From positions 21,490 through 85,489 of the forward strand of contig CAYHHL010000002.1 in assembly GCA_964356325.1 (NCBI GenBank): a DNA stretch of 64,000 bases, written 5' to 3'. The notes under the pieces were generated by a model that saw only the letters and a list, made by a program, of their open reading frames with translations, was not told where the DNA came from and ran no database searches. The DNA is from an uncultured Enterobacteriaceae bacterium. Lineage in GTDB: Bacteria > Myxococcota_A > UBA9042. Shown piece after piece: positions 1 through 56,987 of the stretch (positions are counted from its first letter, which is position 1; each line of letters starts with the position of its first letter). The position numbers and the translations under genes are program-made.

Positions 1-749
1 TAGATGAGACTAGCGACGATGGCCACGCCCAGCGGCAACACCTCGCGGCGGAAGCGGCTGAGCATGTCGCGCGACCAACTGAACTCCGGCGTGACCACCT
101 GCATCATCAGGCGAATCGTTTGGTACAGGCCCAAGCCGCTGGCAATCGTCATGGCCAAGGCGATGACGACCATAGCGATCGACTTCTCGGCGCCGTGCGG
201 ATCGGCCACGTGCATGAGCTGCAGCGCGCCGAACACCAGCACGAGTTGGGCCGCGGCGAAGAAACTGCCCGACCGGGCCTCGAGCTCCAGGCGCTGGATG
301 CCGCGAAACACCTGGCAGATCGCCTCGATGGACGACGCCGCCAGACTCGAAATGCCGCACAGGGCAATGGTGAAGGCGACCGCCGAGGCGTGGTGACGGG
401 GCACGAGTTCGAAACGGGCGTAGGGATCGACGAAATGCCACCAGGTCAGGGCCACCATCAGCACCAGGTAGACGCCGGCCAGCGCGGCCTTGATCGACAG
501 GACCTGGCCGATCAGGCGCGGTGGCGGCACGTCGGACCGGGCGATCTCGCGCGCGAGGAACAGGCCCAGGCCCATGTCCGTGATCTGCACGCACAACAGG
601 CCCACGGTCATCGCGTAGGTGTACTGGCCGTAGATCCTGGTGCCGAGCGCGCGCGCCACCATCGCCACGAGCAAGAGCCGCAGCCCCTTCTCGACGCCGA
701 TGCCTAGGGCTTTCCAGCCGATATTCTTGCGGATGCGTTGGGCGAACAC
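1..749 (-). CDS. Polysaccharide biosynthesis protein, Wzx/PST-family flippase-like. Partial: the C-terminus runs off the left window edge.
   Basis: Minus-strand translation from a GTG at about 749 reads VFAQRIRKNIGWKALGIGVEKGLRLLLVAMVARALGTRIYGQYTY... with multiple hydrophobic segments, typical of the Wzx/PST N-terminus. The track ORFs 10..594(-) and 4..396(+) are off-frame artefacts. Confidence 0.55.
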   Translation of the reverse strand, partial: MFAQRIRKNIGWKALGIGVEKGLRLLLVAMVARALGTRIYGQYTYAMTVGLLCVQITDMGLGLFLAREIARSDVPPPRLIGQVLSIKAALAGVYLVLMVALTWWHFVDPYARFELVPRHHASAVAFTIALCGISSLAASSIEAICQVFRGIQRLELEARSGSFFAAAQLVLVFGALQLMHVADPHGAEKSIAMVVIALAMTIASGLGLYQTIRLMMQVVTPEFSWSRDMLSRFRREVLPLGVAIVASLI

Positions 750-836
750 GGGGGATCTCGCGCGGCAGGGAGGCTCGACAGGCGCGGGATGCTACTCCTC
801 ACGGCGCGGGCCGCAACAGCGTAGCAAACGACGGCA

Positions 837-1616
837 CTATTCGCCGGCGAGCACGGCCGAGAAGGTGCGCACGAAGCAGACCAGGTCCAGCCACAGGGAA
901 AACCGGCGGACGTAGTGGACATCGTACTCGGTGCGGGTCTCGATCGAGACGTTGCCGCGCATGCCGTTGACCTGGGCCCAGCCCGAAAGGCCGGGGCGGA
1001 TGCTGTGGCGCATGTCGTAGTTCGGGATCTGCAGTCGGAAACGCGAAACGAACACGGGCCTTTCGGGGCGCGGGCCGATCCAGCTCATGTCGCCGCTCAA
1101 GACGTTGAGGATCTGCGGCAGTTCGTCCACGCTGGTGCGGCGCAGGATGCCGCCGACCCGGGTGACGCGGGTGTCCTGGCTGCGGGCCCAGCGCGGGCCA
1201 TGGCGCTCGGCGTCGGTGACCATCGAGCGGAACTTGAAGATCTCGAACAACTTGCCGTTCTTGCCGACGCGAACCTGGCGGTACAGCACCGGGCCGTCGC
1301 TGTCCAGCTTGATCGCAAGGCCGATGAGCAGCAGGAACGGCAGTCCCAACATCAGGCAGACCGCGGAAAAGCCGATGTCGAACGCGCGCTTGAGGAACAT
1401 CTGCACCGGCCTGTGCGGCGGACTCTCGGCGGGCGTTTCGTAGACGATGCCCTCGGCGGCCTCGCTGGCGGCGACCTGCTTGGAAGGACCGGCTTTGTCA
1501 TCCCAGGCCGAAGCGTCCACGCGCGCCGCCCCGTCGTCCCAATCCGTGGGCGCGGCGGGAACGGCCGGTTCGGCAGCCTGGGCGGCGCTAGAATTGTTGC
1601 TACGGGCATTGGCCAT
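837..1616 (-). CDS. Bacterial sugar transferase (polyprenyl-phosphate hexose-1-phosphate transferase, PglC/WbaP C-domain type)
   Basis: Contains ...KRAFDIGFSAVCLMLGLPFLLLIGLAIKLDSDGPVLYRQVRVGKNGKLFEIFKFRSM...DELPQILNVLSGDMSWIGPRP, matching the conserved bacterial sugar transferase domain. Confidence 0.8.
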   Translation of the reverse strand: MANARSNNSSAAQAAEPAVPAAPTDWDDGAARVDASAWDDKAGPSKQVAASEAAEGIVYETPAESPPHRPVQMFLKRAFDIGFSAVCLMLGLPFLLLIGLAIKLDSDGPVLYRQVRVGKNGKLFEIFKFRSMVTDAERHGPRWARSQDTRVTRVGGILRRTSVDELPQILNVLSGDMSWIGPRPERPVFVSRFRLQIPNYDMRHSIRPGLSGWAQVNGMRGNVSIETRTEYDVHYVRRFSLWLDLVCFVRTFSAVLAGE

Positions 1617-1637
1617 CGGTGGATCGCCTCGGGAAGT

Positions 1638-2879
1638 TCAGTTCGGCAGTCGTGGGTGCAGCGAGCGGGCTTCTTGGACGGCGGCGCGCATGCGCAGGAG
1701 AAAGGCCGCCCGATCGAAGCGCAGGGCGTTGGCGCGACAGGCCTCGGCCTTCAGGTCCAGACCAGCCAGACGTCGGATCGCCGTCGCGAGCGAATCCGCT
1801 GTCATTTCATGGAAGAACACACCAGTTTGGCCCTCGACGACGCTTTCGAGTGCGCCGCCTCGGCCGAATGCCACCACCGGCACGCCGGCGGCTTGGGCCT
1901 CCAACGGCACGATACCAAAGTCCTCCTCGCCCGGAAAGACGAGGCAGCGGGCGCCCGCGTACCACAGGCTCAGAGCCTCTTCGGCGACTCGCCCGACGAA
2001 GCGGACGTTGCCTGGGGCATGGCGCTGCAAACGCAACCGCTCCGGCCCGTCGCCCACGATGACCAGTTGCCGTTCAGGTAGTTGCCGGTACGCCTCGATG
2101 GCCAGGTCGACCCGCTTGTACGGCACCATTCCGCCGAGCACGAGATCGTAGTCGCGCCGAGCCAGATCGCTCTCCGGATCGGCCGCAACCCCCTGTTCGA
2201 GCACAACCCCCTGCATCCGATCGTATTCCACCGGCGGGGCCACCACGGTCGCGTCGCGGCCATAGAACTCTTTGATCTTGTTGGCGGTGTTCTGACTGTT
2301 GGCCACGAAGGCGTCGACGCGTCCGACCGTCTGCAGGTCCCAGCGCCGCAACCAGCCCGCCGCCGCCCGCAACGCCGGTTTCGCCAGGCGCAGGACCGGA
2401 TGGCTGCCGCGGACGTAATCGTCAGTGCGATCCCAGGCATAGCGAACCGGCGTGTGGCAGTAGCAGACGTGTACGGCGCCTGGCGCGACGATCACCGCCT
2501 TGGCGACGCAATGGCTCGACGACACGACCAGATCGTAGCCGGACAGGTCCAAGGACTCAATTGCGCTCGGGTACAGCGGCAGCAGCCAGCGATGGTGGCT
2601 GCGGGCCAGCGGCAGTCGATCGGCAAAACTGCTGACGTGACGCATGGCTTCGATGCGCGGGGTCGCCACGCCGGGCTCGCGCACCAAAGTGTGCACCGTC
2701 GCGTGCGGAAACAGCTCGCACAGCGCGTCGAGCACGCGTTCGCCGCCGCGCAAGGTCACGAGCCAGTCGTGTACCAGCGCCACGCGCAGACCCTGCCAGT
2801 CGTCACTGCGCGCGTCGTCACTGCGCACGTCGTCAGGCGGCGAATCCGGGCTGTGCTGGCGGTGCGAAGTGTCGAGCAT
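1638..2879 (-). CDS. Glycosyltransferase family 4 (GT-B fold)
   Basis: N-terminus LRVALVHDWL..GGERV is typical of GT4. The C-terminal region has the E-x7-E-like motif FPGEEDFGIVPLEAQAAGVPVVA. Confidence 0.8.
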   Translation of the reverse strand: MLDTSHRQHSPDSPPDDVRSDDARSDDWQGLRVALVHDWLVTLRGGERVLDALCELFPHATVHTLVREPGVATPRIEAMRHVSSFADRLPLARSHHRWLLPLYPSAIESLDLSGYDLVVSSSHCVAKAVIVAPGAVHVCYCHTPVRYAWDRTDDYVRGSHPVLRLAKPALRAAAGWLRRWDLQTVGRVDAFVANSQNTANKIKEFYGRDATVVAPPVEYDRMQGVVLEQGVAADPESDLARRDYDLVLGGMVPYKRVDLAIEAYRQLPERQLVIVGDGPERLRLQRHAPGNVRFVGRVAEEALSLWYAGARCLVFPGEEDFGIVPLEAQAAGVPVVAFGRGGALESVVEGQTGVFFHEMTADSLATAIRRLAGLDLKAEACRANALRFDRAAFLLRMRAAVQEARSLHPRLPN

Positions 2880-2903
2880 GGTCCTTCCCGGCTGCGAACG
2901 GCG

Positions 2904-4385
2904 TCAAGGTAATGGTTGCCCTGGCCCCGGCGCAACGGTGAAGTGCGCAAGTGCTGGCGCCACCGCACGTTCGTACAGGTCGGTCGCCAGCAGCCCGTCC
3001 GGGTCCAGCGTCTGGCGCAGGCGCGCGAACTGCTGCAACGCTTCGGGCGGGAACATCGCCGCCACGGTTTCGGGCTGCAGCGTCGCGTCCTTGGCGAAGT
3101 AGAACCTGCCGCCGGCCTGCACCACCAACCGCTCGATTTCGTGGCACATATCCCAAAGCCTGGCGCGATTTCCCGGCGTGACCGGAAAGTCCAGGGCGAG
3201 CGACCAGCCGTCCATCCCGTGCGTCATCAGGAACGGATCCGGGCGATGGCGCTTCATCACCGCCAGCCAGGAGGGCATGCCGCGCGCCTGGGTCAGTTCC
3301 AGGATCGCCCGGAACACGCGCAACCCCTCGGCATGCGGCACGAAGCTCTGGTGCTGGATGAGCCCGCCCGGCCGATAGATCCACTTCCAGTTCGGCACGT
3401 AATCGAGCAGGAAGTGGAACCCCGCGTGACTCTGGCGGTAACGCTTGCCGTGCTCCAGAAGCTTGCCGGACATGTACTTGGCGAGGTTGATCAGGCGCAT
3501 GCCTGGACCGTTGGCGAACGGCTTGAGCAGCGCCCACATCCACGACTTGGGAATGACGCCGAACAGACGCGACGGCAACTCCTGGCTGGCGACCTGCAGC
3601 GTGTGCGAAGCGTTGCGATCCATGTACTTGCCCAGCTGGTGACCGGTGTGCACCAGACCGCGGCCCAGGGACTTGCCGGTCGCGAAGCCGTCGATCCAGC
3701 CGACCGCGTAATCGCTCTTGGGCAGTTCCCGCTCGAAGATCGCCAGCATTTCCTGGAGGTTGGCCGCCGAGATCGCATGGATCTGCATCTGCCCCGAATA
3801 CACGCGCTTGAGGTGCAGATCGACCCGGGTGATGACCGCCAGCTCGCCGAAACCGCCGATGATCGCGTGGAAAAGCTCGGGCTCCGCAGTCCGCGAAAGT
3901 TCCAGCAGCCTGCCCTCGGGATGCTCGACGGTCGGCGGGGTCAGGACCTGCAACGCCTCGACGTGATCGCCGATCGTCCCGACTGCAAAGGCATTCTTGC
4001 CGTGGATGTTCATCGAGACCGCGCCGCCCAGGGTCGGCTCCATCGTTCCCGACACCACTGGCGGCCACCAGCCCTGCGGCAGCGCGCTTTGCCAGACCTG
4101 GCGCAGCGTGACGCCCGACTGGCAGCGCACCAAACCCGAGTTCGCGTCGAAGTCGAGGATCTGGTTGAACTGCGTGAGGTCGACGACCAGCTTGCCGGTG
4201 CCACAGGACGCGTCGCCATAGGAACAGCCTGAACCGCGCAAGACCACGCGCACGTTACGCTTTTTTGCTTCAACGAGCGCGGCGCGGATGCCGTCGATCG
4301 TCGTGGGCCGCAGCACCAGCGCCGGACCGCCGACCGCCATGCCCCAGCCCGAGACGTCTTGCGTCACCGCGAGGTCCGCGCTCAT
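2904..4385 (-). CDS. FAD-dependent oxidase of the DprE1 family (decaprenylphosphoryl-beta-D-ribose 2'-oxidase-like)
   Basis: VVLRGSGCSYGDAS and TLGGAVSMNIHGKN match DprE1 signatures. The C-terminus GGRFYFAKDATLQPETVAAMFP resembles the DprE1 tail. The internal start MSADL overlaps the upstream stop as ATGA. Confidence 0.8.
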   Translation of the reverse strand: MSADLAVTQDVSGWGMAVGGPALVLRPTTIDGIRAALVEAKKRNVRVVLRGSGCSYGDASCGTGKLVVDLTQFNQILDFDANSGLVRCQSGVTLRQVWQSALPQGWWPPVVSGTMEPTLGGAVSMNIHGKNAFAVGTIGDHVEALQVLTPPTVEHPEGRLLELSRTAEPELFHAIIGGFGELAVITRVDLHLKRVYSGQMQIHAISAANLQEMLAIFERELPKSDYAVGWIDGFATGKSLGRGLVHTGHQLGKYMDRNASHTLQVASQELPSRLFGVIPKSWMWALLKPFANGPGMRLINLAKYMSGKLLEHGKRYRQSHAGFHFLLDYVPNWKWIYRPGGLIQHQSFVPHAEGLRVFRAILELTQARGMPSWLAVMKRHRPDPFLMTHGMDGWSLALDFPVTPGNRARLWDMCHEIERLVVQAGGRFYFAKDATLQPETVAAMFPPEALQQFARLRQTLDPDGLLATDLYERAVAPALAHFTVAPGPGQPLP

Positions 4386-5122
4386 ATCGACAACTTCCTG
4401 AACAGGAACGAGGGTATCCACTGGACGATGGTCATGATCACGCGCCATCGCGCCGGCACGTACACGGTGTGAGAGCCGCATTCGATGGCGCGCGCGATGC
4501 GACGGGCGGCGAGATCGACCGGGTAAAGACCACCGGGCTTGGCTGGCGCGGCCCTGGCCATCGGCGTGTCGGTGGGTCCGGGCTTGACCGTGACGACGCG
4601 GATGCCGTGCACGGACAAGCGGTTGCGCAATGATTCCAGGAAAGTGTGCAGCGCGGCTTTGGACGCTCCGTAGGCGGGCGCGAGCCGGCGGCCGCGATCA
4701 CCGGCGACCGAGCCGATGCCGCAGATCGTGCCGTGACCTTGGCGCAGGAAATCCGTGGCGGCGCAATCGAGCCAGGCCATGGCGCCGATGACATTGGTTT
4801 CGATGATCGCGCGGTCCTTGACGATGTCGAACTCGTCGGCGGCGATCGTAGGCATGATTCCGGAAGCGTAGACGATCGTGTCGATCCCGCCCATCGCTTC
4901 CCAAAGACTGCGCCAGGCGGCCAGGACATCGGCATCGCGTGTCGCATCACAGGCTTGCACGACGGCGCGGCCCCCCTTGGCGGTCACGGCTGCGGCTGTA
5001 GCTTCCAAGGCGTCCTGGCGGCGGGCGACCAGGCCGATCGTGCGACCCGCGCGCGCCATTTCGACGGCCAGGGCAGCGCCGATGCCCGACGATGCGCCTA
5101 CGATGAGGATTCGCTCTGACAT
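4382..5122 (-). CDS. Short-chain dehydrogenase of the DprE2 family (decaprenylphosphoryl-2-keto-ribose reductase-like)
   Basis: MSERILIVGASSGIGAALA is a Rossmann TGxxxGxG-type N-terminus. The C-terminal tail ...IVQWIPSFLFRKLSI is nearly identical to the M. tuberculosis DprE2 tail ...RHIPRSIFRKLPI. The gene is translationally coupled to the DprE1-like gene. Confidence 0.8.
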   Translation of the reverse strand: MSERILIVGASSGIGAALAVEMARAGRTIGLVARRQDALEATAAAVTAKGGRAVVQACDATRDADVLAAWRSLWEAMGGIDTIVYASGIMPTIAADEFDIVKDRAIIETNVIGAMAWLDCAATDFLRQGHGTICGIGSVAGDRGRRLAPAYGASKAALHTFLESLRNRLSVHGIRVVTVKPGPTDTPMARAAPAKPGGLYPVDLAARRIARAIECGSHTVYVPARWRVIMTIVQWIPSFLFRKLSI

Positions 5123-5388
5123 CAAGGACCTCGAACGCGCGGTGCGGGACCGGCTCGGCGCAGTATGGTAGGCGCACCCGGCCGCGCGGGCAAGCCATTG
5201 ACGCTTCGAGGCCAAACGGACGGATCCGAGCGGTGCGCCGCAAGTTGCGCGCCATGCCGAACCATGGCAGGCTCCGCGCCCGCTCGGTTCCGGACCCCCT
5301 TTGCGGTCCGCGACCTTGCAGTTCAAACCCCTGAGTTGACAGACGTTTCGTCGACCAGACGATCCCTTCGACACGGAGCCCGAGCGCG

Positions 5389-7536
<2,148 letters not shown>

Positions 7537-7542
7537 GCGCCG

Positions 7543-9252
7543 ATGCTGGCCGCGCCCCGCCAGTCGCTCGTCGGAGGACGGTGGCAAGCTGGCCTCCTGA
7601 CGCTGCTGACGGTGGGCTACGCGTACCTGTTCCCCTGGTCCGAGCCGACCAACAATCCCAACGAAAACGTGCGCCTCTACATGACTCGGGCCATCGCCGA
7701 GCAGGGCACCTACGCGATTGGCCAGCGCACGCGTCTGCCGACCGGCGGCTATGTCGATCGCGGGCCGGTGTACGACAGTTGGGGCTACGTCAACGACAAG
7801 GCGCTGACGTGCGACGATGGTGGCAAAGCCCCTGATTGTACGGGGCGATTGTACGCGGGCAAAGCGCCGGGCCTCTCGTTGCTGGGCGTGCCTCCGCTGC
7901 TGGCGTTGAACAAGGCGTTCCAGGTCGTCAAGCACGCGCCGCCGTCCAAGGCCTTGATAGTCTGGTGGTTGCGCTTCTGGTGCGTAGTGCTGCCGACCGT
8001 TCTCGGGTTGTGGTGGCTCGCCCGGCACCTGACGCGGACGCTGACCCGGCCGCGGCTGGGCATCGCTGTCGTGCTGGTCGCGGCTTTCGGTTCGTTGTCG
8101 CTGACTTATGGGCAGATGTTCGCCGGCCACCAGACGTCGGGCCTGGCGCTGCTGTGGTGTTTCGCCGCCATCGTTCGGGCTGATCGGCAACCGCGCGGCT
8201 GGCTGATCGTTCAAGCCGGGTTTGCCGCGGCGCTGGCGGCGCTCGTCGAGTTTCCCGCCGGTCCTGCCGCCGTGGTCCTGTTGGGTTGGCTGCTGCTCCG
8301 GCGCAAACGCTGGCAGGATCTGGGCTGGTTGACGCTGGGCGCCGCCCTGCCCAGCGCGGCTCTCGCGCATTTCGACGCGGTGGCGTTCGGCGCGCCCTGG
8401 CACCTGCCCTACGGCCATTTGGAAAACGCCGGTTTCGTGCAGGACATCGCCCCCGGCCTGTTCGGCATCTCGTTTCCCAACCTGGCGAAGACCTCGGGAT
8501 CCTTGCTTTCTCCCTACACGGGCCTGTACTTCTGGGCGCCGTGGATGGTCCTGGCATGGCTCGGCTTCCTGGCGATCCGCAAGCCGGCGCTTGGCCAACC
8601 CGGGCAGCCGGATCGGCGTGGCGAGGCCCTGGTCGCCTCGCTGGTTTGCTTGTATTTCCTGTACTTCCAGTGCTCGCACAGCTTGTGGCGCGGCGGCTGG
8701 GTGGTCGGGCCGCGCTACATCACCGCGATGGTGCCGTTCGCAGCGATCGCGGTTGGCCACGGCGTGGATTCCCTGTCGCCGCGCGCGTTTCGGCTCGCGT
8801 CCCTGACCCTGGCGGTCACGGGCACGGTGGCGATGGTGGTGACCGGCCTGGCGAGCGTCGTCTCCCAGGGCTTTCCGTTCGAGATCTACAACCCGCTGCC
8901 CGAAGTCGTCGGCCCGCTTCTGCGCAACGGCTGGGTCGTCAACAACCCCCTGATGCATATCGGGATTCCGGGGCCGTGGAGTGCCCTGCCCTGGTTCCTG
9001 GCGTTGGCGATCGCGATCGTGTGGGTGGTGCTGCTTCTCGAACCGGAGCCATTGCGGCGCGAGCGCTGGCCGTTGCGCCTGTCTGGCGTCCTGTTCGTGC
9101 TGGCTTTGACAGCCTTGGGCGTGGCGGGGCTGTGGAAGGTCGGTCCGGGGCGATCGGCGCACACCGACAAGACCTTGCATTTCCTCATGACCGTGTGGAC
9201 GCCGGCGAATCCGCCCGGTGCGCGCGTGCCCAAGGACCTGCCGCCGCTATAA
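7543..9252 (+). CDS. GT-C fold membrane glycosyltransferase, ArnT/PMT (GT83/GT39)-like
   Basis: About 12 predicted TM segments. The first periplasmic loop reads ..WSEPTNNPNENVRLYMTRAIAEQG.., resembling the ArnT/PMT 'DExRYAEIAREM' region with N in place of D. The gene starts 6 nt after the hppA stop. Confidence 0.55.
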   Translation: MLAAPRQSLVGGRWQAGLLTLLTVGYAYLFPWSEPTNNPNENVRLYMTRAIAEQGTYAIGQRTRLPTGGYVDRGPVYDSWGYVNDKALTCDDGGKAPDCTGRLYAGKAPGLSLLGVPPLLALNKAFQVVKHAPPSKALIVWWLRFWCVVLPTVLGLWWLARHLTRTLTRPRLGIAVVLVAAFGSLSLTYGQMFAGHQTSGLALLWCFAAIVRADRQPRGWLIVQAGFAAALAALVEFPAGPAAVVLLGWLLLRRKRWQDLGWLTLGAALPSAALAHFDAVAFGAPWHLPYGHLENAGFVQDIAPGLFGISFPNLAKTSGSLLSPYTGLYFWAPWMVLAWLGFLAIRKPALGQPGQPDRRGEALVASLVCLYFLYFQCSHSLWRGGWVVGPRYITAMVPFAAIAVGHGVDSLSPRAFRLASLTLAVTGTVAMVVTGLASVVSQGFPFEIYNPLPEVVGPLLRNGWVVNNPLMHIGIPGPWSALPWFLALAIAIVWVVLLLEPEPLRRERWPLRLSGVLFVLALTALGVAGLWKVGPGRSAHTDKTLHFLMTVWTPANPPGARVPKDLPPL

Positions 9253-10272
9253 ACTCTGCCGCCAGACCGCCGACATCCGCCGCAGACTCGCTTCGATGCG
9301 CCAGTCGATGTTCAGGTGCCCGCCATCGAACTCCTCGACTTCACAAGCTATCCCCAGTTCACGCAGCCGACTCGCCACACGCCTGTGGCCGACGTCGAGG
9401 CACCACTCGTCGCTCGTTCCGGCATCCAGGAACAGCAGCTTCAGGGACCGCAGCGCTTCGACGTGATGTTCAGCCATGTGCAGGGGATCACAGGCGAGCC
9501 AGCGTTGCCAGACCTCGTGCCGAAACGCGCCGGTCTCCAGATCGATGGGCAGATCCGCATGGATCTCCGCTATGTCCAGGTTGGGCGAGTAGCACTGCGC
9601 GTAACACAGCACCATCAGCGCGGTCAGGTCCTGGGAGGCCTTCTGGCGCTTGGCCTCGAACTGACGCACGAACGCCGCGGGCCCCCCCGCCTTGCGGAAC
9701 GCCTGGAACGCCTTGCCGAGATCGGCGGCCATCGTCAGCTCGAAGTGGCAATCGCCCGCGGTCGAGCACACCAGACCGAACACTTCCGGGCGGGTCATGC
9801 CGAGCACCAGCGCGCCGTAACCTCCTGAACTCTTGCCCATCACCCCGCGGTGTTCGCGATCGGGCCGGGTGCGAAACGCGGCGTCCACCGCTGCAACCAG
9901 TTCATCGCACACGTGATCCGCCCACTGCCCCGTCGCCGGCGAGTTGCGGTACTGCGTGCCTCCCATGGCCGTGAAGCAATTCGGGAAGGCGACGATCGTC
10001 GGTTCCAGCTCGCCCGACGTCATCAACCGATCGAATTGCCCGGCCAGCGGTTCCTCCCACGCCTTTTCGGCGCCCAACTTCATGCCGCCCCAACCGCTCC
10101 AGCCGGCGAGATAAAACGCCACGGGAAAGCGACGTTGCCGATCGGTGGCGTACTGGGGTGGCACGTACACCGGCAGCATGCGCAGGCAGGACGCGCCGGC
10201 CAGGTTGCCGCGCAGGAGTTTGCTGTCGACCTGAATCTGCTGGTACGGCAAGTAGTTGCTCGGCTCGGTCAT
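9247..10272 (-). CDS. Putative esterase, alpha/beta-hydrolase (esterase D/enterochelin-esterase-like)
   Basis: Contains a GKSSGG nucleophile elbow (GxSxG). Start MTEPSNYLPYQ is preceded by GGGGAGA. The track ORF is N-terminally over-extended. Confidence 0.7.
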   Translation of the reverse strand: MTEPSNYLPYQQIQVDSKLLRGNLAGASCLRMLPVYVPPQYATDRQRRFPVAFYLAGWSGWGGMKLGAEKAWEEPLAGQFDRLMTSGELEPTIVAFPNCFTAMGGTQYRNSPATGQWADHVCDELVAAVDAAFRTRPDREHRGVMGKSSGGYGALVLGMTRPEVFGLVCSTAGDCHFELTMAADLGKAFQAFRKAGGPAAFVRQFEAKRQKASQDLTALMVLCYAQCYSPNLDIAEIHADLPIDLETGAFRHEVWQRWLACDPLHMAEHHVEALRSLKLLFLDAGTSDEWCLDVGHRRVASRLRELGIACEVEEFDGGHLNIDWRIEASLRRMSAVWRQSL

Positions 10273-10590
10273 CGAATCTCCCCTGGTCGCGAATCCGCCA
10301 AGCGCAAGGTTGGCACAGCTCGTGCACCTCCAGCAATCGTGCCATCGGCACGGGCCGGAGCTGAGCGCTCGCGATTTGCTGCAGATTTCTTGCCCTTTGC
10401 GCAAGTCCTGTTACAAGGCGGGCGATTGGCTCGCCTCGACCGTAGCCGTGGCCAAGCGCGCACGGCAAAGCGACACGAGCCGTGACCGGAGCAGCCATGC
10501 TCCACTGGAGTAGCCCTACTCCACCCATGTGGCCACCTGCCACGAGACTTGCCCGGCCAGCGTACCAAGACGCCGCCGCACCTGGACGCC

Positions 10591-11862
10591 ATGCCGAAGA
10601 TTCGCGTGTGCGACATCAACGACTTCTTCTGCCTCACGGGCGGTGGTGTTCGGCGCTATCACCTGGAGAAGTTGCGGTATATGTCGCGGCGCGATGACGT
10701 CGAATACCACTTGCTGTTGCCCAGCGATCACGCCGGCATCGAAGTCCACGGCAACGCGCGCATCCACCACGTGCCGGCGCTGCCCCTGGGTCGATCGGGC
10801 TACCGGTTGATGTGGAATCCCTTGCGGTTGCGCAAGATCCTCCGGCAGATCCGCCCCAACGTCGTCGAAGTCGGCAGCCCGTACAACACCCCGGATTGGG
10901 TACGCTTTGCCTTGCGCGGGCTGTCCTGCCAGGTGGTCGGCTTCTGGCACGCCAACTACCCGGTCACCGATGTCGGCCGCTCGATGGGCACGATCAGCCG
11001 CAAGCTGGGCCAGTGGGGCGAGAAAGCCGCGTGGTGGTGGGCACGGCGCACGTTCGGAGCGTTTTCCGCGACGATGGCGGCGACGCACGTGATGGTCGAT
11101 CTGCTCGGCAAGAACGGCGTCGACAACGTCGTGCACACGCCGCTGGGCGTCGACACGCAGATGTTCCACCCGCGCCACCGCGACGCCGAACTGCGCAAGA
11201 GTTGGGGCGCGGGACCCGACGACGTGGTGATGTGCTACCCGAACCGGCTGAGCGAAGAGAAGAACTTCCGCCCGCTGCTCGAAGCCTACGAGCGGCTGCG
11301 CGCGACGACCGACGTCAAGCCGATCCTGGTGGTGGCGGGCCACGGTCCGGGCGTCGAAGAAGTGCGCGCGCTGGCGGCGAAGTACCCGGAAGTGCACTAC
11401 GTTGGCTTCCTGGACAAGCCGCGTGACATGGCCAGGCTGCTCGCGTCGACCGACGTGGTGGCGGTGCTGTGTCCTTACGAGACGTTCGGTCTGGCCGCGG
11501 TCGAGGCGATGGCGAGCGGCGCGGCGTTGCTGGGCTCGGCGCACATGAGCATCGGCGAACTGCTGCAGACCTGTCGGTGCGGCATCGCGCTGGAGCAGAC
11601 GACCGCCGAAACCGTAGCGGGTGCGTGGTTGGAACTGATGAAGCCCGGTCGAGCGGCGCTGCTCGGGGCGCGCGGTCATGCCGAGGCGGGCCAGCGCTAT
11701 AGCTGGAAGGACACCTTCGCCCGAATCGTCGCGGTGTACGAGCAGGTGCTCGCCCGCGCCAGGTCTCAGAACAGCCCGCAACCAGAGACGATCGCGGGCT
11801 TGCTGGGGGAAGAGCAAACGCCTCTGCCCGTGCGGCCGGGGCGCTTGAAGGGCATGTTGTAG
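10591..11862 (+). CDS. Glycosyltransferase family 4
   Basis: Starts MPKIRVCDINDFF with GGVRRY, a GT4 N-terminus. The C-domain has the EAMASGAALLGS donor-binding region. Confidence 0.75.
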   Translation: MPKIRVCDINDFFCLTGGGVRRYHLEKLRYMSRRDDVEYHLLLPSDHAGIEVHGNARIHHVPALPLGRSGYRLMWNPLRLRKILRQIRPNVVEVGSPYNTPDWVRFALRGLSCQVVGFWHANYPVTDVGRSMGTISRKLGQWGEKAAWWWARRTFGAFSATMAATHVMVDLLGKNGVDNVVHTPLGVDTQMFHPRHRDAELRKSWGAGPDDVVMCYPNRLSEEKNFRPLLEAYERLRATTDVKPILVVAGHGPGVEEVRALAAKYPEVHYVGFLDKPRDMARLLASTDVVAVLCPYETFGLAAVEAMASGAALLGSAHMSIGELLQTCRCGIALEQTTAETVAGAWLELMKPGRAALLGARGHAEAGQRYSWKDTFARIVAVYEQVLARARSQNSPQPETIAGLLGEEQTPLPVRPGRLKGML

Positions 11863-11927
11863 CGACTGGTTCGCGAGCGTTGGACCAACTCTTCTGAATG
11901 ACAGGAGTTATTGTTCCTCCCTAGGAT

Positions 11928-11962
11928 TTGACACCTCGGCGGTAACCTTTACACTACCGCCG
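11928..11962 (+). promoter_or_regulatory. Candidate sigma-70-type promoter (TTGACA, 17-nt spacer, TACACT) upstream of the Cys-rich lipoprotein gene
   Basis: An AT-richer intergenic island reads ggatTTGACAcctcggcggtaaccttTACACTacc, about 100 nt before the ATG at 12069. Confidence 0.25.
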
Positions 11963-12068
11963 CTTTCCGCACGAACCCCCACCGGTTCCGTGCACAGGCG
12001 ACGCGCATTGGGCGCGGATCGCCGCAACCACTTGCCCAGGTCAACCCTGGGCGCGAGGAAATCTACAC

Positions 12069-12617
12069 ATGAAGAAGTTCCAAAGCCTGCTCGCGCTCGC
12101 GGCCGTTGCCATCCTGGCCGTAGCTTGCGACGACGCTGCGAAGTCCTCCGGTACGCCGACCCCCACCACTGACACCGTCAGCGGCGACATCGCTGCTGCC
12201 GATGTTCCGACCACCGCCGATGTGCCCGCCGATGTGGCCGCCGCGGCGACCGGCTGCACCGCTGCCGCGGATATGGCCTACCTCGGCGGTCTCGCCAAGG
12301 ATCAGGCGGCTGCCGACAAGTTCCAGGACGACATCAAGGGCTGCCTGCTCGGCAAGGGCGCTTCCAAGCCGGACCAGAAGAGCGGCTCCGAGGCCATCGG
12401 CACCTGCGTAGTCGTCGACAAGAAGTACCCCATCACCGAGACCTGCGCCACCTGCTACGGCATCCGCGCCTACTGCGCGTTCAAGAACTGCGTGGCCAAC
12501 CCCGCCGAGGCGCCGACCGCCAAGTGCCTGGACGCGCCGGGTGGCGTTCCGTGCATCGACTGCCAGACCAAGTACAAGTGCATCGAGGCTTCCGAAAGCT
12601 GCAAGGCCGGCAAGTAG
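12069..12617 (+). CDS. Cys-rich secreted lipoprotein, function unknown
   Basis: Signal peptide MKKFQSLLALAAVAILAVAC is lipobox-like. A Thr/Pro/Ala linker precedes a C-terminal domain with about 10 Cys (TCATCYGIRAYCAFKNC...CLDAPGGVPCIDCQTKYKC). Confidence 0.6.
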   Translation: MKKFQSLLALAAVAILAVACDDAAKSSGTPTPTTDTVSGDIAAADVPTTADVPADVAAAATGCTAAADMAYLGGLAKDQAAADKFQDDIKGCLLGKGASKPDQKSGSEAIGTCVVVDKKYPITETCATCYGIRAYCAFKNCVANPAEAPTAKCLDAPGGVPCIDCQTKYKCIEASESCKAGK

Positions 12618-12830
12618 CCCCAGCCGGTTGCCCCGCGCAACTGGACATCGAGACCTGACCGGGGGGTTCGTGGCGCAAGCTGCGGGCCCCTCGGCCGTTT
12701 TTGCCCCGCCGTGCGCCGCCGTCCACGACCGCGCCCCGTCGCCGACCGGGGTCTTGGCGGATGGCGTCGCATCTGGCAGGGTACGCACGCCAGCCCGACC
12801 GTTGAACCCACTGTAGCCGCGAGGATCCTG

Positions 12831-14258
12831 ATGAAAACCCTGCTTCGTCGCACCGCCGTCCTGAGCTGCCTGACCGCCTCCATCCCGTCCATGGCATGGG
12901 CGGCCGGCTACGACACCCCGATGCTCTACAGCGCGCGCCACATGGGCATGGGCGGCACGGCTATCGGCGCGGTCGACGATCCGAGCTCGATCTTCCACAA
13001 TCCCGCGGGCATGTCCCACATCAAGGGCGGTATGCTGCTCCTGGATTTCTCGCCGCTCATCGGCACGATCCACGGCAGCCCGTCTGGCCACGGTGTTTCG
13101 GAGAAAGACAAGTCGATCTCGCACCCGGGCCTCGACATCACCTCGAACACGACTTTCGCACCGTTCTTCATGGCGGGCGGCGCCTACACGCTGCACAAGT
13201 ATCTGACGCTCGGTTTCGCTGTGTATCCGGTGGCCAGCGCGGGGGCGAGCTACACTTACGCGGTGGAGGCAAACGGTAACGAGAAGGTCGACATCAAGGA
13301 CCACACCAAGCTTGCGTTCATCGACTTCGCGCCGGCGATCTCCGCGCAATTGCTGCCTAACCTGCGCATCGGCGCGGCGTATCGGTACTCCACGGTCGAC
13401 TTCGAACGCCAGCGCATCAACCCGGACGCCACTGGCACGCCGTCCCCGATCGATTTGACGATGAAGGGCAGCAACGCCGCCGGCTTCCGGGTCGGCGGGC
13501 AATACACCTACGGAGCGCTCGATCTCGGCCTGACCTACCGGCACAAGACCCAAACGGTCGTGAAGGCGGCGACCGGCGTGGTCAACAACCAGAACGGCAC
13601 CGACCTCGAGTATGAGTTCGTGCTGCCGTCCAAGCTCGGCTTCGGTGTGCAATTCAGGGAACAGATGCTCCGGCTCGCGTTCGACCTCGAGTACACGTGG
13701 CAGGAGCAGAACCGTACGACCAGCCTCAAGGGAAGTGCGGTGCTATTCGGCCAGCCGTCGTCGGTGGCGGTGAGCAACGTAGCGAACTGGCAGAACACGA
13801 TGACGGCTCGCGTCGGCGCCGGCTACAAGATCGGCAGTGCCGAGGTGCGCGCTGGCTACACGCACGACTCCCAAGCCTCGCAAATCAATTACCCTTCGGC
13901 ATTCGGCACGCCCCCCGGCTCCACGCAAGTGTTCACCGCAGGCCTGGGCTACGAGATCAGCGACAGGTTGGACTTTTCGCTGGCTGGCGCCTACCGCACC
14001 GGTTCGGCCACCGTCACCAAGGCCGACGCCCCGACGGACTGCCCGCTGTGCGGCAGAGAAGGAAGCTACAATATCAAGCTGTTCGGCGCGTATCTGGACA
14101 TGCGCTGGAAGTTCGGCGCGCCCAAGGCCGCTGCCGCCCCGGCGATCGAAGAGGTCAAGGAGCCCACGCCGGCCGTCGAGACTGCACCGTCGCCCGCGCC
14201 TGCGGCTCCTACCGCGGCCGCCCCCGAACCGGCCAACGCTACGCAACCACAAGCCTGA
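12831..14258 (+). CDS. Outer-membrane transport protein, OMPP1/FadL/TodX family
   Basis: Signal peptide MKTLLRRTAVLSCLTASIPSMAWA precedes AGYDTPMLYSARHMGMGGTAIGAVDDPSSIFHNPAGM, a FadL-type N-terminal hatch with NPA. The body has beta-strand periodicity. The tail is Ala/Pro-rich. Confidence 0.75.
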   Translation: MKTLLRRTAVLSCLTASIPSMAWAAGYDTPMLYSARHMGMGGTAIGAVDDPSSIFHNPAGMSHIKGGMLLLDFSPLIGTIHGSPSGHGVSEKDKSISHPGLDITSNTTFAPFFMAGGAYTLHKYLTLGFAVYPVASAGASYTYAVEANGNEKVDIKDHTKLAFIDFAPAISAQLLPNLRIGAAYRYSTVDFERQRINPDATGTPSPIDLTMKGSNAAGFRVGGQYTYGALDLGLTYRHKTQTVVKAATGVVNNQNGTDLEYEFVLPSKLGFGVQFREQMLRLAFDLEYTWQEQNRTTSLKGSAVLFGQPSSVAVSNVANWQNTMTARVGAGYKIGSAEVRAGYTHDSQASQINYPSAFGTPPGSTQVFTAGLGYEISDRLDFSLAGAYRTGSATVTKADAPTDCPLCGREGSYNIKLFGAYLDMRWKFGAPKAAAAPAIEEVKEPTPAVETAPSPAPAAPTAAAPEPANATQPQA

Positions 14259-33311: not shown

Positions 33312-34391
33312 TCATTTGTGTTTCACGGCCAGCTTGCGGAACAGCGCGCGCACGTTGTCGCCCAGCAACCCGCACGTCACCGGTTCAGGCAGCCCCGCCG
33401 CCAGCAAGGCCTCGACCAGGTTGGGCAATTGCCGCACCGAGCGCAGATCGTCGGGCGCCAGGATGTCGCCGTCGAAATCGAGGCCCAGCGCCAGCACCGC
33501 GTCACCACCCACCTGACGAACGTGTTGGACCTGGCGCACGAGGTCGGCGGTCGTGCACCGCGATCTGCCCGCCGCGAAAGGACAATGCGCGTTCAGGCCG
33601 ACGACGCCGCCGGAACGCGCGATGGCAGAGATCAGATCGTCGGGCAGGTTGCGCGCGTGCTGGACGACCGCGCGGGCGTTGGAATGCGTTGCTATCACAG
33701 GCAGTTTGCTCGAGGCCAGCATCTGCCGCGCGGTCGCGTCCGAGGCATGCGAGACGTCCAGGAGCACGCCCATTTCGCCAGCGATGCGCACGAGCTTGCG
33801 GCCTTGCGCCGAGAGTCCGCTGTGCAGCTTTCGACCGCGCGCCGCATCAGCAAAGGCATTGCTTTTGTTCCAGGTGGGCGCCACCGCCAGCAGGCCTTCC
33901 TGGCCCCACCCGCGCAACGCTTCGGCCCGCCCGCCCAGCGCCTCACCGCCTTCGATCGAAACGATGACCAGGGGTTGCTCGCCAGCTGAGGCCGCCAACC
34001 GCTTGGCCTCGGCCCGCACCAGGCCGCATTGCGCCAGCCGGGCGATGGCAACCAGTGCCTCGCGAGCCGCCCGCACGCCGTCTTCGCGCCCGGGCCGGGT
34101 CCAGACCGCATAGACCTGCGCCCCATAACGGGAATCGCGCAGACCAGCGGGATCGGCCTGCAGCGGTTCGCTGCAACGCCACGCTTGCTTGCCGACCGGC
34201 CGCTTGCGCACCTGCCAAGCCGTGTCGGCGTGCAGATCGATCGGCCGACAACGGGCGATCAGTTCCTTCGCCCTTTCACTGGCCTGCACCGGAGCGTGCG
34301 CTGCCGCGAGAGCTAGCGCGACGGCGACGGCTTGCATCGCCGCCCTCGCGACCGGCACACTGCGCCTCCGTTTCGCCACGGCCTTTGCCAC
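33312..34391 (-). CDS. Membrane dipeptidase (peptidase M19, renal dipeptidase family), secreted
   Basis: Metal-ligand motifs IDLHADT, SIEGGEAL, LDVSHAS and VIATHSNARA. The N-terminal signal peptide is KRRR plus a hydrophobic stretch. The start is GTG at 34391 or ATG at 34337. Confidence 0.8.
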   Translation of the reverse strand: MAKAVAKRRRSVPVARAAMQAVAVALALAAAHAPVQASERAKELIARCRPIDLHADTAWQVRKRPVGKQAWRCSEPLQADPAGLRDSRYGAQVYAVWTRPGREDGVRAAREALVAIARLAQCGLVRAEAKRLAASAGEQPLVIVSIEGGEALGGRAEALRGWGQEGLLAVAPTWNKSNAFADAARGRKLHSGLSAQGRKLVRIAGEMGVLLDVSHASDATARQMLASSKLPVIATHSNARAVVQHARNLPDDLISAIARSGGVVGLNAHCPFAAGRSRCTTADLVRQVQHVRQVGGDAVLALGLDFDGDILAPDDLRSVRQLPNLVEALLAAGLPEPVTCGLLGDNVRALFRKLAVKHK

Positions 34392-34433
34392 CTACAGCTC
34401 GCATGCACGCAAGCACGCACGCAGGACACGCGC

Positions 34434-34775
34434 ATGAGAATCGTCGACAAGCCCTGGGGCCACGAGGAGATCTGGGCCGAGACCAGCCGTTATGCCGGCA
34501 AGTTCCTGATCATCCGGCGCGGCGAGATGTTGTCCCGGCAGTACCACGAGCGCAAGGAAGAGACGATTTGCGTGCTGGAGGGCACATTGCTGCTCGAGGT
34601 GGGCCGCGCGCCGGCCGAGCAGCTGCGCCTGGGCCCGGGCGAGGTGTTCCACGTCCTGCCGGGCACCGTGCACCGTTTTTGCGCCGAGGAAAGCGACGTA
34701 CGCCTGGTCGAGGTCTCGACCCCCGAACTCGACGACGTGGTGCGGCTCGAAGACAAGTACGCGCGCAAGGGTTGA
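34434..34775 (+). CDS. Cupin domain protein (mannose-6-phosphate isomerase type II C-domain-like)
   Basis: MRIVDKPWGHEEIWAE...GEMLSRQYHERKEETICVLEG...GEVFHVLPGTVHRF carries cupin motifs 1 and 2. Confidence 0.7.
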   Translation: MRIVDKPWGHEEIWAETSRYAGKFLIIRRGEMLSRQYHERKEETICVLEGTLLLEVGRAPAEQLRLGPGEVFHVLPGTVHRFCAEESDVRLVEVSTPELDDVVRLEDKYARKG

Positions 34776-34937
34776 GAAACGGGGCCAAAGTTTCGAACTC
34801 ACTGGCCAACGGCGCAGGGGCCGCGAGGCGCCATGCACGGCGCACCAGGTTGGACATTACTCCGACAGGCTCCTAGACTCGATCTCCCCATCTGCAAGCG
34901 CGCGGATCTTCGGACGCACGCCGACCACGGAGCCTCG

Positions 34938-56003: not shown

Positions 56004-56045
56004 CGCAACATCGGATAGCGCAACATCGGATAGCGCAATATCGAG
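56004..56045. repeat. 15-bp tandem direct repeat (2.8 copies) in the argG-prs intergenic region
   Basis: cgcaacatcggatag | cgcaacatcggatag | cgcaatatcgag, immediately before the prs RBS GAGGG. Confidence 0.6.
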
Positions 56046-56051
56046 GGCTCC

Positions 56052-56987
56052 ATGAACGCTCATATCAAGATCTTCGCAGGTTCCAGTCACCCCGCGTTGG
56101 CCCAGGCGATTTGCGACAACTTGGACGTGCCGCTGGCAAAGAGCGAGACGGTCAGGTTTTCCAACGAGAACCTGATGGTCAAGATCCAGGAGAACGTTCG
56201 CGAATGCGACGTCTTCTACATCCAGACCTCGGCCACCCCGGTGCACGATGTCATCATGGAGATGCTGATCGCCATCGATGCGCTCAAGCACAGTTCGGCG
56301 GCCCGGGTCACCGCGGTGCTGCCCTACTTCTTCTACGCCCGGTCGGACAAGAAAGACCGGCCGCGCATCTCGATCACCGCGCGGCTGATGGCCGACCTGC
56401 TGCAGACGGCCGGCGCCGATCGCGTGCTGACGATGGACCTGCACTCGCCGCAAATCCAAGGCTTCTTCCGCGTTCCAGTCGACCAGCTCGTGGCCGCGCC
56501 GATCCTGTGCGCGCACCTGCGCCGGGAAGATCTGACCGACCACGTGCTGGTGGCGGGCGACGTCGGTGAAGCCAAGGAACTCGGGCGGTTCGCCAACCTC
56601 TTGCACCTGCCCGTCGCCATCGTCGACAAGCGGCGCTATGGCGACGACGACAAGGCCGTGGCCACCAACCTCATCGGCGATGTCGAACGCAAGCATGCGA
56701 TCATCGTGGACGACGAAATCGCCACGGGCGGCACGATCATCGAGGCCACGAACTTCCTCATGGATCGCGGAGCCTTGTCCGTGCGCGTCATGGCCACCCA
56801 CGGCGTGCTGAGCGGTCCCGCGGTCGATCGCATCAACCATTCGGTCATCTCGAGCGTCTTGGTCACCGACACGATCCCGCTGCGCGACAAGCAGTCGGAC
56901 AAGATCAAGGTCCTGTCGGTCGCGCCGGTATTCGCCAAAGCCATCCGCCGCATCCACGACGGCGACTCGGTCAGCGACTTGTTCTGA
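56052..56987 (+). CDS. prs: Ribose-phosphate pyrophosphokinase
   Basis: The PRPP-binding loop HAIIVDDEIATGGTI and the typical Prs N-terminus IKIFAGSSHPALAQAI. Confidence 0.95.
   Translation: MNAHIKIFAGSSHPALAQAICDNLDVPLAKSETVRFSNENLMVKIQENVRECDVFYIQTSATPVHDVIMEMLIAIDALKHSSAARVTAVLPYFFYARSDKKDRPRISITARLMADLLQTAGADRVLTMDLHSPQIQGFFRVPVDQLVAAPILCAHLRREDLTDHVLVAGDVGEAKELGRFANLLHLPVAIVDKRRYGDDDKAVATNLIGDVERKHAIIVDDEIATGGTIIEATNFLMDRGALSVRVMATHGVLSGPAVDRINHSVISSVLVTDTIPLRDKQSDKIKVLSVAPVFAKAIRRIHDGDSVSDLF

Follow-up and report, generated by a model that had tools for sequence, protein, structure and literature searches.

A putative DprE1/DprE2-family epimerase pair of a widespread sister clade at a predicted Wzx/Wzy-type glycan operon of an uncultured bacterium

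The DprE1/DprE2 enzymes of Mycobacterium tuberculosis, known as decaprenylphosphoryl-beta-D-ribose 2'-epimerase, act on polyprenyl-phospho-ribose and consist of a FAD_binding_4 oxidase (DprE1, Rv3790) and a classical short-chain dehydrogenase/reductase (SDR; DprE2, Rv3791), which are encoded by adjacent, translationally coupled genes with a GT-C glycosyltransferase gene nearby. GT-C enzymes of the ArnT and Emb kind use polyprenyl-phosphate-linked donors, and Cys387 of DprE1 is the residue bound by benzothiazinones. Homologues of DprE1 and DprE2 also act as auxiliary epimerases where Gram-negative bacteria attach pentofuranoses in the periplasm, a type of glycosylation that combines a polyprenyl-phosphate phosphoribosyltransferase (PPPRS), a flippase and a GT-C enzyme and includes O-antigen systems (Kelly et al. 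2024, PMC11127046); the D-arabinofuranose pathway of the Pseudomonas aeruginosa PA7/Pa5196 pilin, as cited in that paper, is a published counterpart. In the plasmid-borne clusters of Tateyamaria, Rhizobium etli, Azospirillum and Cereibacter that we compared, PPPRS, GtrA, oxidase and SDR genes are followed, except in Azospirillum, by the gene of a large hypothetical membrane protein, and on a plasmid of the cyanobacterium Kovacikia PPPRS, oxidase and SDR genes were detected and GtrA was not. We refer to the characterised and PPPRS-linked enzymes as canonical.

Here we describe a related gene pair in a 64,000-nucleotide stretch of DNA from an uncultured bacterium (the window; contig CAYHHL010000002.1, positions 21,490 to 85,489), in which a DprE2-like SDR (4382-5122) precedes a DprE1-like FAD-dependent oxidase (2904-4385). 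Best supported, and unproven here, is the reading that the pair is a two-enzyme epimerase of the DprE1/DprE2 family acting on a polyprenyl (undecaprenyl) phosphate-linked sugar and converting ribose to arabinose, to which we assign a probability of roughly 0.6. In such a pathway the oxidase would convert the 2'-hydroxyl of polyprenyl-phospho-beta-D-ribofuranose to a 2'-keto intermediate, which the SDR would in turn reduce on its opposite side, with NAD(P)H as reductant, to yield polyprenyl-phospho-D-arabinofuranose. The lipid-linked donor would then be flipped to the periplasmic face and used by a GT-C glycosyltransferase, for which the product of 7543-9252 is the candidate, to decorate a glycan built by the co-transcribed phosphoglycosyl transferase, GT4 glycosyltransferase, Wzx and Wzy_C proteins. 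The identity of the sugar, of the acceptor and of the flippase, and a PPPRS encoded elsewhere in the genome, are what we infer in this scheme.

The oxidase is assigned to the DprE1 family because DprE1 is its only full-length relative and because the active-site residues are conserved. Against the NCBIfam DprE1 model (NF053785) it scores 289 bits over model positions 3-446 of 449, with the runner-up family at 64 bits, and a search of the PDB pairs residues 10-473 of its 493 with positions 12-457 of DprE1 chain 21gq_A (183 bits). Other PDB families match only the N-terminal FAD-binding part, approximately the first 230 residues; in neither NCBIfam nor the PDB does a family other than DprE1 match over the full length. 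The protein contains GSGCSYGD and NIHGKN; these signatures, the latter given as IHGKN, and a DprE2-type C-terminus in the SDR had been named in an original prediction made from the sequence alone, and all are present. In an alignment of 31 oxidases from the divergent group to which the window pair belongs (clade W, described below) with six canonical ones, the equivalents of Y60, H132, K134, Q334, Q336, K367, Y415 and K418 are invariant. These positions, with Lys418 as an essential residue, are those of the active site in DprE1 structures. Asn385 is replaced by Ser and Cys387 by Ala in clade W; Ala also occupies the Cys387 position in five of the six canonical sequences, namely the non-actinobacterial ones. 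Several substitutions specific to clade W lie near the DprE1 flexible loop, where R325 is not conserved and N324 is replaced by Lys. The window oxidase is 29-30% identical to M. tuberculosis DprE1 and 30-34% identical to the plasmid-borne alphaproteobacterial homologues, and those two groups share 37% with each other.

The partner protein is a classical SDR with the motifs GASSGIG and YGASK (Pfam adh_short, E 1e-41). It matches two NCBIfam models end to end, PRK07102 (NF005489) with 194 bits and DprE2 (NF053786) with 132 bits, and PRK07102 was found, from the sequences it matches, to model the DprE2-like partner in Gram-negative and cyanobacterial clusters of the arabinose type. The C-terminus ends in WIPSFLFRKLSI immediately before the stop and carries the tail IPSFLFRKLSI. 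Across 71 clade-W SDRs, including that of the window, the tail consensus is IPSFIFRRLxI (P in 68, F in 65 and L in 60 of the 71), and the tails of canonical PPPRS-linked SDRs are similar (IPETIFKKLSL in Tateyamaria, IPESIFKRLRL in R. etli), giving the common pattern IPxxIF[KR][KR]Lx[IL]. Judged by these alignments, the tail sets DprE2-type SDRs apart from other SDRs. The features of both proteins thus support membership of the pair in the DprE1/DprE2 family, as had been proposed.

A genome scan seeded with the oxidase and limited to one genome per species gave 80 loci, from uncultured Myxococcales, many Leptospira species, Planctomycetota, Armatimonadota, Chlorobiota/Kapaibacteriota, Sumerlaeota and Acidobacteriota. 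The nearest genome matches to the window pair are metagenome-assembled genomes (MAGs) of uncultured Myxococcales with 58-63% amino acid identity, which makes the label "myxobacterial" in the original prediction a reasonable one; identity within clade W is about 50% across phyla and ranges from 45 to 63% relative to the window pair. The SDR gene lies immediately upstream of the oxidase gene in 64-68 of the 80 loci, in at least eight phyla, and the pair therefore forms one conserved unit; the gene order that had been described as inverted is borne out and is the norm in this clade. The branching of clade W largely tracks taxonomy, which suggests vertical inheritance. Since both proteins score lower than their canonical homologues on the actinobacterial models, the oxidase and the SDR of clade W are, by this measure, enzymes that diverged together. 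Unsupervised clustering of the neighbours in the 80 loci revealed no family beyond the SDR-oxidase pair that is common across phyla, and GT-C, GT2, membrane pyrophosphatase (PPase) and Wzy_C families were each found in just 1-8 loci by seeded iterative searches with hidden Markov models (HMMs). The pair stands alone in most phyla, as two genes set among housekeeping genes (fumarase, Cys/Met pyridoxal phosphate enzymes, ThuA, a MiaB-like protein and arginyl-tRNA-protein transferase). The idea that it belongs to a bigger operon kept in all phyla was dropped, the commonest neighbours being unrelated housekeeping genes.

Several results weigh against equating the window pair with DprE1/DprE2. The oxidase score lies below the DprE1 equivalog cut-off of 500 bits, and on the same model canonical non-actinobacterial oxidases reach 417-467 bits whereas clade-W members reach 277-289 (277 for the Leptospira protein). 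The SDR likewise falls under both curated cut-offs (267 bits for PRK07102 and 250 for DprE2), with canonical Gram-negative and cyanobacterial SDRs scoring 316-373 bits on PRK07102 and 188-200 on DprE2, and clade-W SDRs only 132-143 on DprE2. A neighbour-joining tree of 37 oxidases (31 of clade W and six canonical) with 200 bootstraps splits canonical DprE1 from clade W in 200 of 200 replicates, with mean distances of 0.77 within clade W, 0.92 within the canonical group and 1.58 between them. The phylogenetic comparison that had been proposed as a check, made here with the oxidases, places the window pair in a deep sister clade, not within the characterised and PPPRS-linked one; it is not an orthologue of characterised DprE1/DprE2. 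No clade-W member has biochemical evidence in the literature searched, in which we found nothing on clade W, on DprE1 homologues of Leptospira or on Myxococcus. Homologues of the window GT-C protein at 41-46% identity do not adjoin a pair, so that this adjacency is lineage-specific. A search for a PPPRS had been set beforehand as a test of the prediction, and with PPPRS and GtrA queries from the canonical plasmid clusters, used in tblastn and in two HMM searches, neither gene was found in the 64-kb window, in the 8.9 kb of additional contig available from a second assembly (L001) or in the surroundings of the pair, up to a distance of 10 kb, at 86 clade-W loci. The same tblastn queries recover the PPPRS of the cyanobacterium Kovacikia (E 1e-14 to 1e-25), and the polytopic open reading frames (ORFs) of the window are all accounted for by Wzx, the PPase, the 569-aa GT-C protein, a major facilitator superfamily (MFS) transporter and an ABC-2 permease. 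Taken alone, this absence counts against conversion of ribose to arabinose. Even with the metagenomic loci described next, a PPPRS gene stands directly upstream in just 3 of 45 informative metagenome loci and in none of 60 genome loci, or about 3%.

A metagenome scan seeded with the divergent clade-W oxidase of locus L097 yielded 80 further loci. Three of them (L120, L151 and L169), which belong to clade W, carry a UbiA-family PPPRS gene that immediately precedes the SDR and oxidase genes on the same strand and is assigned by hmmsearch (E 1e-60 to 1e-71) and by Pfam PF01040. Their oxidases are 44-46% identical to that of the window and about 30-33% identical to the canonical enzymes. In L097, also of clade W, a PPPRS homologue with the motif NDLRDRDED, 40% identical to that of Kovacikia, lies 4.7 kb from the pair. 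These PPPRS-SDR-oxidase operons in three clade-W relatives back the ribose-to-arabinose assignment, which for this reason we rank above a substrate supplied by a GT2 enzyme, and on such sequence grounds clade W most probably acts on polyprenyl-phospho-ribose, as DprE1/DprE2 do. For the organism of the window this would require a PPPRS encoded elsewhere in its genome. The lipid-linked D-arabinofuranose donor of the original prediction accordingly stands as the best-supported reading, with the qualification that some pairs are coupled to GT2 synthases and their sugar could differ.

Two further observations touch on this step. The window contains a gene for ribose-phosphate pyrophosphokinase, or phosphoribosyl pyrophosphate (PRPP) synthetase (56034-56987, plus strand), 50 kb from the pair and beside the argininosuccinate synthase gene. 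PRPP synthetase makes the donor that a PPPRS needs and is a universal housekeeping gene, and given this and its neighbour no linkage to the pair is implied. In L097, the PPPRS-type UbiA gene is co-oriented with genes for a GalE-like NAD-dependent epimerase and a methyltransferase (439-3529, minus strand), and a second NAD-dependent epimerase gene together with a PMT_2 GT-C gene lies downstream (11111-13443, minus strand). This arrangement resembles the published set-up for epimerisation of ribofuranose to xylofuranose, and by analogy both arabinose and xylose donors could be made there.

The G+C content of the window is 64-71%, and genuine genes were chosen by codon-position G+C. Around the pair they are arranged as follows.

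1..749, minus strand: Wzx-type flippase, truncated by the window edge (Pfam Polysacc_synt)
837..1616, minus strand: polyprenyl-phosphate phosphoglycosyl transferase (PGT), 259 aa, predicted initiating enzyme (Pfam Bac_transf, E 3e-66)
1638..2879, minus strand: GT4 glycosyltransferase, 413 aa, 24 bp downstream of the oxidase gene (Pfam Glycos_transf_1 and Glyco_transf_4)
2904..4385, minus strand: DprE1-like FAD-dependent oxidase, 493 aa (Pfam FAD_binding_4 and ALO C-terminal domain)
4382..4385, minus strand: ATGA overlap of SDR stop and oxidase start (translational coupling), read in the sequence
4382..5122, minus strand: DprE2-like SDR, 246 aa, first gene of the operon
5389..7536, plus strand: membrane H+/Na+-translocating PPase, 715 aa, divergent from the SDR gene (Pfam H_PPase, E 7e-231)
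7543..9252, plus strand: GT-C fold glycosyltransferase of an undescribed family, 569 aa (AlphaFold model and Foldseek)
9247..10404, minus strand: esterase-family protein, convergent with the GT-C gene (PF00756, Pfam Esterase, E 9e-17)

The oxidase, GT4, PGT and Wzx genes lie on one strand with gaps of 21-88 bp, in agreement with the predicted co-orientation, and the oxidase-GT4-PGT gaps of 21-24 bp point to co-transcription of these genes. The tight same-strand spacing indicates that the SDR-oxidase pair heads a Wzx/Wzy-type operon. The PGT exceeds the NCBIfam EPS_sugtrans cut-off (305 against 295.55 bits). In L001, the second assembly of the same contig, which extends 8.9 kb past the window start, the full 442-aa Wzx gene is followed by the gene of a 586-aa Wzy_C protein and then by thiS/thiG, and the glycan operon therefore ends at Wzy_C. 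The GT4 gene order is kept in the Myxococcales loci L008-L013, and the GT4-PGT-Wzx-Wzy_C neighbourhood occurs only in relatives with at least 58% identity. Wzx is the only flippase-like gene product in the window; such proteins are normally assigned to polyprenyl-diphosphate-linked units and belong to the same superfamily as MATE transporters. The region first singled out, 2904-9252, omitted the co-transcribed GT4, PGT and Wzx genes and included a PPase gene that went unmentioned. The ATGA overlap is likewise real, but it had been called a hallmark, and a 4-bp overlap of SDR and oxidase genes is found in 23 of 70 related pairs, such overlaps being common in operons generally. One of the related loci, L010 (CAMDBH010000011.1, 59% G+C), is titled 'MAG: Klebsiella pneumoniae' and has a locus of Myxococcales type (esterase, GT-C, PPase, pair, GT4, PGT, Wzx and Wzy_C); the public record is probably mislabelled or mis-binned.

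The protein encoded at 7543-9252 has no Pfam match, and its family sequence profile has no PDB match. An AlphaFold model based on a 40-sequence alignment reached a mean predicted local distance difference test (pLDDT) score of 91.2 and a predicted template modelling (pTM) score of 0.93, and the ten best Foldseek matches to this model in the PDB are all GT-C proteins, including ArnT (E 3.9e-6), EmbA/EmbB, ALG9 and STT3 of the human oligosaccharyltransferase complex, with EmbC, ALG12, ALG3 and Pmt4 further down the list. The TM-scores are moderate (0.41-0.46) and the top matches have a probability of 1.00, at 13-17% sequence identity. As modelled, the protein is a GT-C glycosyltransferase whose family is undescribed. 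It shares the GT-C fold and a multi-helix membrane domain with ArnT (GT83) and EmbA/B/C (GT53) but lacks a large periplasmic C-terminal domain. Six residues (N38, P39, N40, E41, D72 and D85) do not vary among 40 homologues and come after the first predicted helix, at residues 13-27; the acidic ones are candidates for the conserved acidic position expected in the first extracytoplasmic loop of GT-C enzymes. Its only sequence relatives, and weak ones, are the unstudied putative glycosyltransferases LA_3751/LA_3752 of Leptospira (NCBIfam E 5e-6), and when the family was compared by hhalign with 39 polytopic neighbour families, only the LA_3751 type was matched (probability 75%, 278 columns); the other GT-C-like neighbours could not be linked to it by sequence.

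The GT-C gene starts 2.4 kb from the SDR start on the opposite strand, behind the PPase gene, and its linkage to the pair is kept in the Myxococcales lineage of the window, with or without the PPase gene between them. The nearby ArnT/PMT-like enzyme of the original prediction is thus upheld at the level of the fold, with its adjacency to the pair confined to this one lineage, and a functional link between the two, resting on that lineage, is plausible. The PPase itself exceeds the cut-off of its model (NCBIfam NF001961, 936 bits); a gap of 6 bp separates its gene from the GT-C gene that follows, an arrangement suggestive of one operon. L008-L012 likewise have a PPase gene between GT-C gene and pair, whereas none is called at that place in L007, L013 and L014, where the GT-C gene faces the SDR gene. 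These three loci leave unsupported the idea that the PPase is part of the pathway and clears the pyrophosphate released by a PPPRS, and it is no more than conjecture that the PPase removes pyrophosphate set free by a PPPRS or by a nucleotidyltransferase. The most widely kept neighbour of the GT-C gene is the esterase-like gene, which stays with it in L089, L090 and L091, loci without the pair, near a MacB-type ABC transporter; the esterase family PF00756 also holds the mycobacterial antigen-85 mycolyltransferases. Past the esterase gene lies a second GT4 gene (10549-11862, plus strand), whose product matches positions 2-360 of 361 of an N-acetylglucosaminyl phosphatidylglycerol synthase model with 193 bits, below the cut-off of 480, and which may encode a glycolipid synthase instead of a polysaccharide glycosyltransferase.

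GT-C genes adjoin the pair in three phyla: in Leptospira, in Kapaibacteriota, where a MAG has an ArnT-like gene directly after the oxidase gene, and in Myxococcales with the family of 7543-9252. The Leptospira interrogans locus (L002/L003, 9206-21466) encodes the pair, a GT-C protein of 493 aa, an AglJ-like GT2, an LA_3751/LA_3752-family protein, a 661-aa Wzy_C protein and an AftB-like GT-C protein. The Leptospira family c26 beside the pair matches the MT1671 mannosyltransferase and Agl23 models, the LA_3751-family protein is a true member (272 bits), and the AftB-like protein matches the model of a mycobacterial beta-(1,2)-arabinofuranosyltransferase with E 1e-20 to 1e-22. This combination of GT-C and Wzy_C genes near the pair is an independent recurrence and adds some weight to the GT-C link. 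Leptospira lipopolysaccharide (LPS) is reported to contain 20-36% arabinose and about 20% xylose (PMC4628369), and a lipid-linked pentose route would fit the arabinose content so reported, the pair being present in many Leptospira species. We found no biosynthetic route for this arabinose in the literature searched.

A second signal in these neighbourhoods is a GT2 enzyme. In pathogenic Leptospira the SDR, oxidase, GT-C and GT2 genes follow one another on one strand, and the GT2 protein resembles AglJ, dolichyl-phosphate hexose transferase and PpgS. Directly before the SDR and oxidase genes of L034/L006 and L097 lies the gene of a fusion protein, a sugar-1-phosphate nucleotidyltransferase joined to an AglJ-like GT2 (7774-9270 in L006/L034 and 6001-7443 in L097). 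The fusion protein has about 480 aa, its GT2 part is AglJ/DPM1-like, and its sequences are 68-87% identical among 120 cluster representatives. It adjoins DprE1/E2-like pairs of both clades in three of the six loci examined; in L099 (10001-11467) it is divergent from a canonical-type pair. In a fourth locus, L098 (10001-11443), it is followed by a YfhO GT-C gene. Genes of PF00884 (sulfatase or phosphoethanolamine-transferase-like) lie close to the fusion in several loci.

This GT2 signal is the basis of an alternative that keeps the chemistry and changes the substrate, namely that the sugar epimerised is a hexose or pentopyranose on polyprenyl phosphate, which a GT2 of the GtrB/AglJ/DPM1 type makes from a nucleotide sugar and not from PRPP, and that a GT-C enzyme then uses the product. 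The Leptospira gene order, the fusion upstream of the pair in L034/L006 and L097, its place beside the pair of L099 and before the YfhO gene of L098, the rarity of PPPRS linkage in clade W and the clade-specific substitutions around the flexible loop all speak for it. We nevertheless regard it as unlikely, because the catalytic pocket residues are those of DprE1, because PPPRS genes head the operon in three clade-W loci, and because no such GT2 is encoded in the window; most other loci lack one as well. L097 moreover carries a PPPRS together with the fusion, and the presence of the fusion beside the canonical-type pair of L099 means that it does not tell the two clades apart. An extension of the same idea would see in clade W an ancient, vertically inherited envelope function of at least eight diderm phyla, whose substrate in some lineages comes from the fusion or from an AglJ-like GT2 and provides a PRPP-independent route to epimerised polyprenyl-phosphate sugars for undescribed GT-C families (LA_3751/LA_3752 and that of 7543-9252); this proposal, too, is speculative and probably incorrect.

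The remaining alternatives concern the context and the substrate class. The pair may be a true lipid-linked sugar epimerase that serves another envelope glycan, for example LPS, with its place in the Wzx/Wzy operon and near the GT-C gene being no more than inherited synteny of one Myxococcales lineage. The stand-alone position of the pair in most phyla, the retention of the esterase neighbour and not of the pair by distant GT-C homologues, and the restriction of the GT4-PGT-Wzx-Wzy_C neighbourhood to close relatives would all be expected in that case, yet the short spacing of the oxidase, GT4 and PGT genes indicates co-transcription, and the LA_3751-family GT-C relative and Wzy_C gene near the pair in Leptospira recur independently, which makes mere synteny quite improbable. 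We give least credence to the possibility that no lipid-linked substrate is involved and that an FAD oxidase of the vanillyl-alcohol oxidase or sugar-lactone oxidase superfamily acts with a generic SDR on a soluble alcohol or sugar. Both proteins do fall under the curated family cut-offs, and weaker matches to sugar-1,4-lactone oxidases and GlcD were obtained, but those matches span the FAD-binding half only and score 40-64 bits, compared with 183-289 bits over the full length for DprE1. The retained DprE1 active-site residues, the DprE2-specific C-terminal tail and the operon links to PPPRS, GT-C and polyprenyl-phosphate GT2 genes also argue strongly against such an activity.

If the pair is a DprE1/DprE2-family epimerase, as we favour, the locus differs from the described systems in several respects. 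Compared with M. tuberculosis, where the likeness extends to the adjacent, coupled genes, the full-length alignment of the oxidase and the eight conserved active-site equivalents, the window pair shows low identity, encodes the SDR first, has Ala in place of Cys387 and belongs to a separate clade; it comes from a Myxococcota-type diderm and stands in a Wzx/Wzy-type operon and not in an arabinogalactan locus. With the canonical Gram-negative and cyanobacterial clusters it would have in common a pentofuranose donor carried on a lipid, an epimerase of DprE1/E2 type in an auxiliary role and a GT-C enzyme acting in the periplasm, in addition to the shared SDR tail; their PPPRS gene is adjacent, however, their oxidase gene precedes the SDR gene and their SDRs pass the PRK07102 cut-off, whereas the window has the reverse order, no PPPRS or GtrA in 64 kb and an SDR below that cut-off. 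Measured against the three-component system of Kelly et al. 2024 (PMC11127046), a candidate for the GT-C component is present at the locus and the PPPRS component is absent from the window. Other clade-W pairs, such as those of Leptospira (e.g. L. interrogans P0109), Planctomycetota, Armatimonadota, Chlorobiota, Sumerlaeota and Acidobacteriota, share the SDR-first order and the same invariant residues, but their neighbours vary by lineage, and only in the Myxococcales lineage of the window does the pair head a GT4-PGT-Wzx-Wzy_C operon opposite a PPase-GT-C operon. The non-actinobacterial occurrence stressed in the original prediction is real and not new in itself, since the general concept has been published for Gram-negative bacteria, both for P. 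aeruginosa and for O-antigen systems (PMC11127046); what goes beyond it is clade W, an uncharacterised group that is both broad and conserved and that includes pairs from many Leptospira species.

Should clade W make lipid-linked D-arabinofuranose, the source of the abundant arabinose reported for Leptospira LPS (PMC4628369) would be explained, and a pathway best known as the anti-tuberculosis target of benzothiazinones would extend to Myxococcota, Planctomycetota, Armatimonadota, Chlorobiota and other phyla. With Ala at the position of the drug-binding Cys387, the clade-W enzymes should then be naturally insensitive to benzothiazinones. An undescribed GT-C family would acquire a function, and the locus would be a further case in which a Wzx/Wzy operon incorporates a periplasmic system for pentofuranose side branches; if the substrate came from the GT2 fusion instead, it would represent a new class of lipid-linked donor chemistry. 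For the window alone the gain is modest: an annotation with good support, and a prediction open to testing, for an organism not yet in culture.

Farther along the window, a single ORF of about 3,700 codons (34776-45896, plus strand) encodes a protein rich in Ala, Leu, Arg and Glu, with TPR repeats mainly near the C-terminus (residues ~3440-3700), which looks like an all-alpha solenoid. The long opposite-strand frames over it are shadow ORFs, owing to the high G+C content. Directly upstream (34317-34775, plus strand), a small cupin protein is encoded that has weak matches to D-lyxose isomerase and mannose-6-phosphate isomerase domains.

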